DNA from: Dolichospermum sp.
Lineage (GTDB): Bacteria; Cyanobacteriota; Cyanobacteriia; Cyanobacteriales; Nostocaceae
Reading direction: 5' to 3'
Assembly: GCA_046070105.1 (NCBI GenBank)
Contig: JBJUHT010000117.1
Coordinates: forward strand, 1 to 21,703
DNA length: 21,703 nucleotides
The position numbers and the translations under genes are program-made. This document shows positions 1,309-2,516 of this stretch, in pieces (within the stretch, counting starts at the first letter, position 1; each line of letters opens with the position of its first letter). A model generated the notes under the pieces. That model was not told the origin of the DNA, ran no database searches, and saw only the letters and a list, made by a program, of their open reading frames with translations.

Positions 1309-2286
1309 TTACAAAATTCTTCTAGCTTTAATTTTACCTGATGGCGTATCTAAATGCCAAGCTGTATAAATAACTCTTCCTTCACTACTTGCTTGCAATA
1401 AATCTTTACCTAATTGATGACGATCTTCTAAACCTAGTGTATTGTTTTCCATATACTTGGCTTGCTTTTCAACATAAGAAGATAAACTTTGAGATTCAGA
1501 AAGTCGAGAACTATCTGTTTTGCATTCAAACACTAAATAGGTTGCACTACTACGTTTTAACTGCTCCCAATTTTCTATATCCTGACGGCTGATAACCATA
1601 AAAGCGGAGTCTACAGCACAACGATCCCCACCACTAAAGGGACGACTAGCAATAGCATATTTAATAGATGAATTTTTTGCTAAAAATTCTTTTGCTGTCT
1701 GATAGGCCAGTTCTTCCGTAGTAGTTTCTACTGTTAAACCTTTTTGTCCTTCTAAAAACCAACAACTATCTATAATTTCAGGTAAAAAAGCATGACAAAG
1801 ACTTTCGCCAATTTTGCCTTTAGCAATCTTGATGCCTTGAGCAATACTGCGTGTCTTAAATATTTGAAACTTGTCTTGTGCTGACATTAATGTTTTCAGC
1901 AGTGTTCCAAAGTCTGGATCTAACTGTGTTTCATAAATAGAATTGACAGCAGGAAAATTAAACTTCGCTCCAGAAGATACGGGTACAGAATTTGAATTTA
2001 CACTGGAAGTATTACCAGATATGTTAGTAATATTTCCAATGCGTGATTGATAATGCTGTATAGAAGCATTTCCCCATTGACGATTAATGTCCATCAAACA
2101 ATCACCTGTATGCCTTAATTGTCCTTCGAGTTCTTCACATAACTCTTGAAGTTGTCGAAAGAAATAAGATAAATCATCTTCTGGGCAATCTTGAATTTTA
2201 TTACAGAGGCGATAAAAATATTCCGTTGTTTCTAAACAACGATTCAAATGCCTCCGAAATTGTTCAATATCATCTTTCAGGGTCAT
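1309..2286 (-). CDS. Two-domain protein. N-terminal ~72-aa helical hairpin is paralogous to the upstream 74-aa protein and ends in R-Q-W-G. An S/N-rich linker follows, then a C-terminal restriction-endonuclease-like (PD-(D/E)xK) domain.
   Basis: ATG at 2286, 5 nt after the upstream stop (the track's TTG at 2301 is less likely). C-terminal pattern: GKIGESLCHAFL ... CAVDSAFMV ... YLVFECKTD, which reads as GxxGE helix, D strand, ExK strand. Confidence 0.6.
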   Translation of the reverse strand: MTLKDDIEQFRRHLNRCLETTEYFYRLCNKIQDCPEDDLSYFFRQLQELCEELEGQLRHTGDCLMDINRQWGNASIQHYQSRIGNITNISGNTSSVNSNSVPVSSGAKFNFPAVNSIYETQLDPDFGTLLKTLMSAQDKFQIFKTRSIAQGIKIAKGKIGESLCHAFLPEIIDSCWFLEGQKGLTVETTTEELAYQTAKEFLAKNSSIKYAIASRPFSGGDRCAVDSAFMVISRQDIENWEQLKRSSATYLVFECKTDSSRLSESQSLSSYVEKQAKYMENNTLGLEDRHQLGKDLLQASSEGRVIYTAWHLDTPSGKIKARRIL

Positions 2287-2291
2287 GCACT

Positions 2292-2516
2292 TTAACCCCA
2301 ACGTTTACTAATGTCGTCTAGTAATTCAGTTGTAGATTTAAGTTGTGTGTAGTTTTCTTCCAAGCCTTCCATAAGTTCCGCAAATTTTCGGCTCAGAAGT
2401 GCCGCCTCAGTTTGGGGGACTGTGCGGGAAGAATTGCTAACTTCTTCAAGTTCTTCTACTAAACGATTAATCATCCGACGAAATTCCTCAATATCTTCAG
2501 ACAAAGTTCTAGCCAT
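2292..2516 (-). CDS. Small (74 aa) helix-turn-helix hairpin protein, ESAT-6/WXG100-like in size and layout, ending in K-R-W-G
   Basis: GAGAGG Shine-Dalgarno-like sequence 8 nt upstream of the ATG. Two amphipathic helices are separated by SNSSRTVPQ. It is paralogous to the N-terminus of the next gene. Confidence 0.7.
   Translation of the reverse strand: MARTLSEDIEEFRRMINRLVEELEEVSNSSRTVPQTEAALLSRKFAELMEGLEENYTQLKSTTELLDDISKRWG

Follow-up and report, generated by a model that had tools for sequence, protein, structure and literature searches.

A candidate polymorphic-toxin locus in Dolichospermum combines a helical hairpin pair, an FtsK/SpoIIIE-family ATPase and a probable nuclease domain

What is the role of a small helical protein that is encoded directly before a larger protein carrying a second copy of the same hairpin? 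The question is raised by a stretch of 21,703 nucleotides from Dolichospermum sp. (contig JBJUHT010000117.1, positions 1 to 21,703), referred to here as the window. On its minus strand, a free-standing hairpin of 74 residues is followed by a protein of 325 residues, here called the effector, which consists of a paralogous hairpin, a linker and a nuclease-like C-terminal domain. These are the last two genes of an operon of four, in the order HEAT-like/transmembrane gene, FtsK/SpoIIIE ATPase, 74-residue hairpin and hairpin-linker-effector. The spacers are 7, 21 and 5 nt, so that the hairpin gene starts 21 nt past the ATPase stop and the effector ATG lies 5 nt past the hairpin stop. The answer that we favour, and to which we give an even chance, is by analogy: the hairpin pair would be the substrate end of a four-gene polymorphic-toxin system, in which an ATPase drives the export of a hairpin-paired toxin in a type-VII-like manner, with no sequence homology to type VII secretion. 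Judged from sequence comparisons, the C-terminal domain of the effector is exchanged by recombination behind a conserved handle. The features concerned are as follows.

1094-1308, no strand: non-coding spacer at the expected site of an immunity gene, with stops in all six frames and no open reading frame (ORF) of 30 residues or more
1309-1938, minus: C-terminal alpha/beta domain of the effector, residues 117-325 plus stop, a probable PD-(D/E)xK nuclease (E161, D226, E254-x-K256 and Q266; domain model)
1939-2070, minus: S/N-rich, disordered effector linker, residues 73-116 (low model confidence; alignment of effectors with different C-domains)
2071-2286, minus: N-terminal hairpin module of the effector, residues 1-72, paralogue of the 74-residue protein (BLASTP, hhalign, shuffles, AlphaFold2)
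2292-2516, minus: free-standing helical hairpin of 74 residues, a conserved partner with a VSNSSRT turn and a C-terminal RWG (homologues and locus context)
2538-4589, minus: soluble FtsK/SpoIIIE-family P-loop ATPase of 683 residues, ATPase domain approximately 440-683, Walker A GAGKT, Walker B LWLIDEAAD
4597-7245, minus: HEAT-like repeat protein with about seven C-terminal hydrophobic helices, a candidate membrane component (ORF of 882 residues; 870 annotated from 7209)
7260-7487, minus: N-terminal 75-residue piece of the HEAT-like/transmembrane gene, split off by a frameshift near 7290-7300 (tblastn)

The hairpin pair and its operon

The effector lies in a long ORF at 1309-2301 of the minus strand. 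Because its homologues begin at an equivalent MTL or MPL, the true start is the ATG at 2286 rather than the upstream TTG, which is also the start chosen in an earlier reading of this DNA made from its letters (the sequence-only reading). Counted from this start, residues 2-72 of the effector align without gaps to residues 4-74 of the small protein, and the 27 identities in 71 positions reported in that reading are an exact count. In 20,000 composition-preserving shuffles, the best-offset identity has a mean of 9.1, a standard deviation of 1.3 and a maximum of 18. BLASTP of the 74-residue protein against the effector hairpin gives E=1e-13, and hhalign of 20 small proteins against 13 effector N-termini gives a probability of 98.6%, E=6.5e-16, over 73 gap-free columns. 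Since the shuffles, BLASTP and the profile-profile alignment all agree, the similarity is taken to be real and the two hairpins to be paralogues.

The obvious objection is that two acidic amphipathic helices could resemble one another through composition, and that the C-terminal domain is not a nuclease either. The small-protein profile does find syntaxin Habc-type matches in the PDB, as a helical bias would predict; these were judged to be artefacts of helical composition. The shuffles never reach the observed identity, however, the profile alignment is gap-free from end to end, and all the loci keep the register, with DIEEFRR at the start and WG at the end. A compositional origin of the hairpin similarity is thus already largely refuted at the level of sequence, and the explanation as a whole, whose second half is taken up below, strikes us as very improbable.

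As had been noticed from the letters, both copies end in W-G, which in the 74-residue protein forms the C-terminus; W73 and G74 are kept in at least 90% of 20 small-protein homologues. The small protein has about 20 homologue clusters, 64–93% identical and all of 71–85 residues, which have in common an invariant VSNSSR turn and a C-terminal RWG. The hairpin turn reads VSNSSRT or QDCPEDD, and W-G comes where helix 2 ends. Modelled with AlphaFold2, the 325-residue effector (mean predicted local distance difference test score, pLDDT, of 76.7) has helices at 3-33 and 36-71 with pLDDT 86–88, followed by the linker and an alpha/beta domain. The linker has pLDDT below 50 at residues 81-105, and it is within the linker that homology among effectors with different C-domains stops in the alignment. 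The proposed succession of an S/N-rich linker and a GxxGE...D...ExK module is therefore upheld, with the linker modelled as disordered and the motif residues invariant in homologues.

Searches of Pfam, NCBIfam and PADLOC with the hairpins returned coiled-coil noise only. The nearest that the small-protein profile comes to a secretion substrate in the PDB is S. aureus EsxA at E=0.32, and the effector profile has no match among PDB sequences. A third copy of the hairpin, fused to the ATPase or to the HEAT-like/transmembrane protein in the logic of effector-associated domains (EADs), was looked for and none was found.

The ATPase has a single Pfam match, to FtsK_SpoIIIE (4.5e-13, residues 442-602), and its N-terminal 430 residues or so have no known match. 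NCBIfam models for EccCb, FtsK and EssC match at about 1e-9, and with both Walker motifs intact the protein is of the FtsK/TcpA/EssC/EccC kind. Homologues 37–51% identical over the full length occur in seven related loci, and a profile of eight orthologues run against the PDB finds FtsK (5.5e-20), a conjugative coupling protein (8.7e-20), YukB (3e-14) and EccC (7e-8).

The first gene of the operon encodes a protein with a weak HEAT_2 Pfam match and hydrophobic segments between residues 653 and 861. Homologues of 25–50% identity occupy the same position in the loci numbered L005, L007, L009, L010, L014, L016 and L001. In tblastn with the homologue from L014, residues 5-48 match 7424-7287 and residues 44-120 match 7302-7072 in another frame, which locates the frameshift. 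At residues ~300-640 the Dolichospermum protein contains about three tandem copies of a unit of ~100 residues (repeated QIEALKSIDKIINNISRKVSILSPYL...LLLKNHWNYLDEQ), and because of these internal copies it is about 200 residues longer than its homologues. Directly upstream of the operon lies an IS630-type transposase (7582-8620, minus), in two ORFs with HTH_33 domains and then DDE_3. In related metagenome-assembled genomes (MAGs) it is a single product of 342 residues, which suggests programmed frameshifting.

The split into pieces of 75 and 870 residues recurs in five other Dolichospermum assemblies, and since the frameshift is present in all the Dolichospermum assemblies examined, the system may be impaired in the Dolichospermum population. 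It could even be a decaying remnant, non-functional in this genus, with the 325-residue protein a harmless relic or a co-opted housekeeping nuclease. The frameshift, the transposase immediately upstream, the missing immunity gene in the window and the truncation of the ATPase in the UBA999-type locus would all fit such a history. Yet the ORFs for the ATPase, the small protein and the effector are all intact and show little or no variation among many Dolichospermum assemblies; the catalytic-type residues of the effector are invariant down to 20–30% identity; and the 870-residue remainder is itself an intact ORF with its own possible start. We therefore regard decay as improbable.

The C-terminal domain and its replacements

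The residues of the predicted catalytic centre are well conserved. K156-G157-x-x-G160-E161, D226 and E254-x-K256 are invariant in 14 homologues, and G157, G160, E161, D226, E254, K256 and Q266 are invariant in 21 sequences, down to 27% identity. The order E...D...ExK...Q is that of the restriction-endonuclease-fold toxins listed by Zhang et al. (PMC3482391). One Tox-REase family for comparison is Tox-REase-7 (GxxxE, IxD, ExK, Q), which shares with G157xxxE161...D226...E254xK256...Q266 both the residue order and the C-terminal position in a polymorphic toxin. The domain differs from the Tox-REase families in that it has no Pfam match, the residue two before D226 is not I, and a helix lies between the D and ExK strands. 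No Pfam family, Tox-REase models included, matches the domain in any of the 21 members at E<=1, and NCBIfam and PADLOC also have none.

A model of the domain alone, made with a deeper alignment, reaches a pLDDT of 88.1 and a predicted template modelling score of 0.84. In this model E161 belongs to a long helix, D226 immediately precedes a strand and ExK sits in the strand after that, a further helix separating the two strands. Foldseek with this domain against the PDB and BFVD yields no match at E<=1e-3; the TM-scores are 0.2–0.3. The sub-threshold lists, from two independent libraries, nevertheless consist mostly of PD-(D/E)xK proteins: the SPARDA nuclease, MspJI, BglI, HincII, RecU and Cas4, together with cap-snatching endonucleases, herpesvirus UL24 and proteins annotated as PD-(D/E)XK. 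Foldseek with the full-length effector model gives only designed hairpins and weak nuclease matches. The earlier suggestion of a nuclease-like C-domain has thus gained the invariant E/D/ExK/Q residues and a set of structural matches dominated by one fold, each of which is below threshold. That every E-value lies above 1e-3 is what could be said for the compositional explanation introduced above; against this, PD-(D/E)xK proteins dominate both structure libraries. We conclude that the domain is probably of the PD-(D/E)xK fold, with a putative nuclease activity, and on its sequence it would constitute a new PD-(D/E)xK toxin family outside the described Pfam families.

In two metagenomic contigs (L018, 1-4986; L019, 1-5342), remote homologues of the C-domain that have different helical N-termini directly follow HerA/FtsK-type ATPases. 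The N-terminal region of these HerA/DUF87-type ATPases weakly resembles that of the ATPase in the window. L018 also encodes a charged helical protein of 172 residues and two tandem effectors with a common helical N-terminus, and the downstream protein of L019 looks ParB-like by eye, with no Pfam match.

Related loci were recovered with homologues of the small protein and by scanning genomes and metagenomes for patterns. Every one with a named organism is cyanobacterial (Dolichospermum, Roseofilum, Scytonema, Iningainema, Brasilonema, a Coleofasciculaceae MAG and a 'Cyanobacteria bacterium' MAG). The four-gene core is seen only in filamentous cyanobacteria, and its order is constant wherever the contig is long enough. 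An FtsK/SpoIIIE gene, complete or truncated, precedes the small hairpin in every locus with upstream sequence, and a hairpin-fused effector follows it in every locus that reaches far enough. A HMMER search of 1.84 billion representative proteins with the effector profile finds 42 proteins at E<=1e-3, and no relatives were found in viral contigs or plasmids. By these searches the effector family is small and lineage-restricted. In current databases the proteins of the system are named 'hypothetical protein' or 'FtsK/SpoIIIE domain-containing protein'.

Counting the C-domain types that stand behind the same hairpin and a variable linker gives at least six besides that of the window, which is the hallmark of polymorphic toxins that the sequence-only reading had proposed to look for. 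They are a MafB19-like deaminase (5e-10), an AHH nuclease (3e-18 to 7e-19), AHH fused to a MafB19 deaminase, a GNAT acetyltransferase (1.5e-6), a weak match to GIY-YIG (1e-3) and a hydrophobic domain in Scytonema-type loci; several further C-domains behind the hairpin have no match at all. The identity of the hairpin tracks the lineage of the locus and not the type of C-domain. The hairpin of one REase-like effector (P0012) is 72–75% identical to those of deaminase and AHH effectors and 35% to that of the window, and the hairpin of the window shares 58% identity with one whose effector ends in an unrelated C-domain. Exchanged C-domains, orphan cassettes and hairpin identity by lineage are together the signature of recombinational cassette exchange (PMC3482391).

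Two of the loci give a view of individual exchanges. In L007 (8223-9347) hairpin, AHH nuclease and MafB19 deaminase are read in one frame as an effector of 374 residues. In L030 this AHH module is closed by a stop codon, which leaves the deaminase as an orphan. The pair looks like a single insertion event that had two outcomes. In the loci of Scytonema, Iningainema and Brasilonema (L008-L011, L033) the C-domain combines a hydrophobic stretch with a strongly acidic or basic tail, has no Pfam match and may be a toxin that acts on membranes. Downstream of these hydrophobic effectors, a conserved small ORF was looked for and none was found.

Immunity genes and the choice between export and intracellular conflict

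Polymorphic toxins are expected to be followed by an immunity gene, and the sequence-only reading had remarked that the non-coding 1094-1308 would be atypical for one. Six-frame translation confirms that no immunity ORF follows the effector, and tblastn with Imm1, the orphan deaminase and SUKH of L012 finds no match in the window. The same spacer, also with no immunity gene, recurs in five other Dolichospermum assemblies. The genes that come next, for a PF04020 holin-like membrane protein (659-1093) and for Pmp3, were considered as immunity genes and rejected, because neither accompanies the effector in any other locus.

Immunity genes are present in relatives. Imm1 (4e-11) lies directly downstream of deaminase effectors. 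In L012 (1072-2188), behind an effector 63% identical to that of the window, come an orphan MafB19 deaminase cassette that lacks the hairpin, then Imm1 and SUKH (SMI1/KNR4). In L016 and L017 the same position is occupied by a deaminase remnant with stop codons, accompanied in L017 by Imm1, and in L030 the AHH effector is followed by the orphan deaminase. The REase-like and AHH modules have been inserted ahead of an old deaminase without bringing an immunity gene.

The mechanism that we favour would run as follows. The free hairpin would pair with the hairpin of the effector to form a four-helix bundle, as in EsxA/EsxB or LXG/Lap pairs, and this bundle would be what the adjacent ATPase recognises. 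Docked on the HEAT-like/transmembrane protein, the ATPase would drive the unfolded linker and toxin through the cytoplasmic membrane. The toxin would then attack nucleic acid in a recipient cell, and Imm1 would shield kin from the ancestral deaminase.

Several observations weigh against export of this kind. The hairpins have no sequence link to the WXG100, LXG or Lap families, and neither the 74-residue protein nor the effector has a Pfam match to WXG100, LXG, DUF3130 or DUF3958 at E<=1. Compared with WXG100 (PF06013), the cyanobacterial hairpin is of 72–74 residues rather than ~100, and its turn lacks W-x-G. The ATPase is no closer to type VII ATPases than to the DNA translocase FtsK; it has one detectable ATPase domain, unlike EccC/EssC; and none of the eight orthologues has a hydrophobic segment or transmembrane helix. 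Cyanobacteria have two membranes, and no outer-membrane component is seen. The membrane-protein gene is split by the recurrent frameshift described above. Defence or toxin-antitoxin genes are frequent among the neighbours. Finally, no cognate immunity gene follows the REase-like or AHH modules in any locus, with none at all in the window, and nuclease modules of this kind are hard to reconcile with an exported anti-kin toxin.

This last point, the defence-rich neighbourhoods and the pairing of ATPase and nuclease in distant relatives keep an intracellular model alive. The locus would then be an abortive-infection or programmed-death system, in which an ATPase of FtsK/HerA type, held at the membrane by the HEAT-like/transmembrane protein, senses invading DNA and releases or activates an effector docked to it by homotypic contacts between hairpins. 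The free hairpin would be an adaptor or inhibitor, the effectors would vary as in other defence systems, and Imm1 would be a safety antitoxin. The absence of immunity genes for the nuclease modules fits this model, as do the remote C-domain homologues directly after HerA/FtsK-type ATPases, with the tandem effectors of L018. In PADLOC the ATPase matches mad8 (4.5e-17), SspH and HerA, but these matches are limited to the generic ATPase domain, the other three proteins of the operon have none, and no catalogued HerA/FtsK anti-phage system is matched in full. Neighbours of defence type occur both in the window (two AAA_21/AAA_15 ATPases and NB-ARC-TPR) and in relatives (AbiEii, ParE and a diversity-generating retroelement). 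Multicellular cyanobacteria, which are the hosts here, are also the setting of the EAD systems of Kaur et al. 2020 (PMC7159879). On the other hand, Imm1, SUKH, orphan cassettes and the set of AHH, MafB19 and GNAT domains are what marks secreted polymorphic toxins (PMC3482391, PMC3239186). An EAD would normally be fused to the ATPase or to the HEAT-like protein, and the hairpin is fused to neither; the long disordered linker and the hydrophobic nature of some effectors also count against the model. On balance we think the intracellular model less likely than export, though it is the main rival.

Returning to the toxin-export reading, a bolder version of it can be put forward by analogy. Filamentous cyanobacteria would possess their own FtsK-ATPase export route, consisting of a soluble single-domain ATPase, a HEAT-like platform with multiple transmembrane helices and a 72-residue non-WXG hairpin pair. 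This route would deliver recombining toxins between cells of a filament or mat, with nuclease cargoes that need no dedicated immunity, for example because self DNA is modified. We offer this tentatively, as possible rather than probable.

Relation to known systems and significance

The likeness to type VII secretion lies in a small helical hairpin encoded beside an FtsK/SpoIIIE-family ATPase and in a paralogous hairpin on a larger substrate, from which a two-hairpin bundle may be expected as the unit recognised by the ATPase. The comparison with EsxA/EsxB or with LXG toxins and their partners made in the sequence-only reading is strengthened by the ATPase gene immediately upstream; membership of the WXG100, LXG, DUF3130 and DUF3958 families is not supported by the searches reported above. 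EccC/EssC are membrane-bound and have three ATPase domains, whereas the cyanobacterial ATPase is soluble with one detected, and the accessory HEAT-like protein is unrelated to EssA/B, EsaA or EccB/D/E. The host considered here is a diderm cyanobacterium, whereas T7SSa-j were reported only in Actinomycetota and Bacillota (Garrett et al. 2024, PMC11217815).

With the LXG/Lap toxins the four-gene system, taken over all its loci, shares a helical N-terminal handle on interchangeable toxins, a separate small helical partner, downstream immunity genes and orphan cassettes. The LXG domain is of ~200 residues and has two partners, however, whereas here there is a single hairpin of 72 residues with one partner. 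No match to LXG (PF04740), DUF3130 or DUF3958 was found; a distant homologue (P0042) has a sub-threshold YwqH-like match at E=0.008.

The vocabulary of Imm1, MafB19 deaminase and AHH, and a mode of replacement that leaves orphan cassettes, are those of the polymorphic toxin systems of Zhang et al. 2012 (PMC3482391). The difference is that the newly inserted nuclease modules bring no immunity gene. The catalogue of Zhang et al. does not contain the cyanobacterial trafficking module and its gene neighbourhood, and credits cyanobacteria only with solo WXG proteins and a three-domain YueA-like ATPase.

Finally, defence systems that combine HerA/FtsK with a nuclease, and EAD adaptors (PMC7159879), resemble the locus in having an FtsK-HerA ATPase beside a PD-(D/E)xK-like effector in multicellular cyanobacterial hosts. 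As in EAD systems, two copies of a small helical module occur and could pair. Here the second copy is free-standing and not fused to an NTPase, and the system, taken over all its loci, differs from both kinds in having immunity proteins, orphan toxin cassettes and a core protein with multiple transmembrane segments. Literature searches for a type-VII-like toxin system of cyanobacteria found no description of the four-gene system.

Other genes of the window and its relatives may be added. Two consecutive genes for AAA_21/AAA_15 (ABC/OLD-type) ATPases at 12275-16240 (plus), each followed by one or two small ORFs with no match, look like two defence-type modules. A gene for a STAND NTPase with NB-ARC and TPR (20204-21703, plus) runs past the end of the window, and with the other conflict-type genes it suggests a conflict-gene island. 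A TldD/PmbA metallopeptidase pair (16334-19626, plus) encloses a gene for a 23S rRNA intervening-sequence protein (PF05635). The GC content of this segment is 0.42-0.46, against about 0.33 elsewhere in the window. In a metagenomic relative (L005, 928-2935), the four-gene system is immediately preceded by a diversity-generating retroelement (bAvd and reverse transcriptase) and a ParE toxin.

Type VII secretion and LXG/WXG toxins are ascribed to Actinomycetota and Bacillota, and polymorphic toxins linked to FtsK-type ATPases have so far been reported only from monoderm-type lineages (firmicutes, actinobacteria and chloroflexi). If the toxin-export reading is true, a system restricted to cyanobacteria that uses the logic of type VII with unrelated sequences would contribute a new trafficking module and, in a diderm, a new candidate export machine, and a new PD-(D/E)xK toxin family would be added. 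Nuclease modules that are repeatedly inserted with no immunity gene challenge the usual rule that toxin and immunity travel as one cassette. For bloom- and mat-forming filamentous cyanobacteria such as Dolichospermum, the system would provide a handle on kin discrimination or antagonism.

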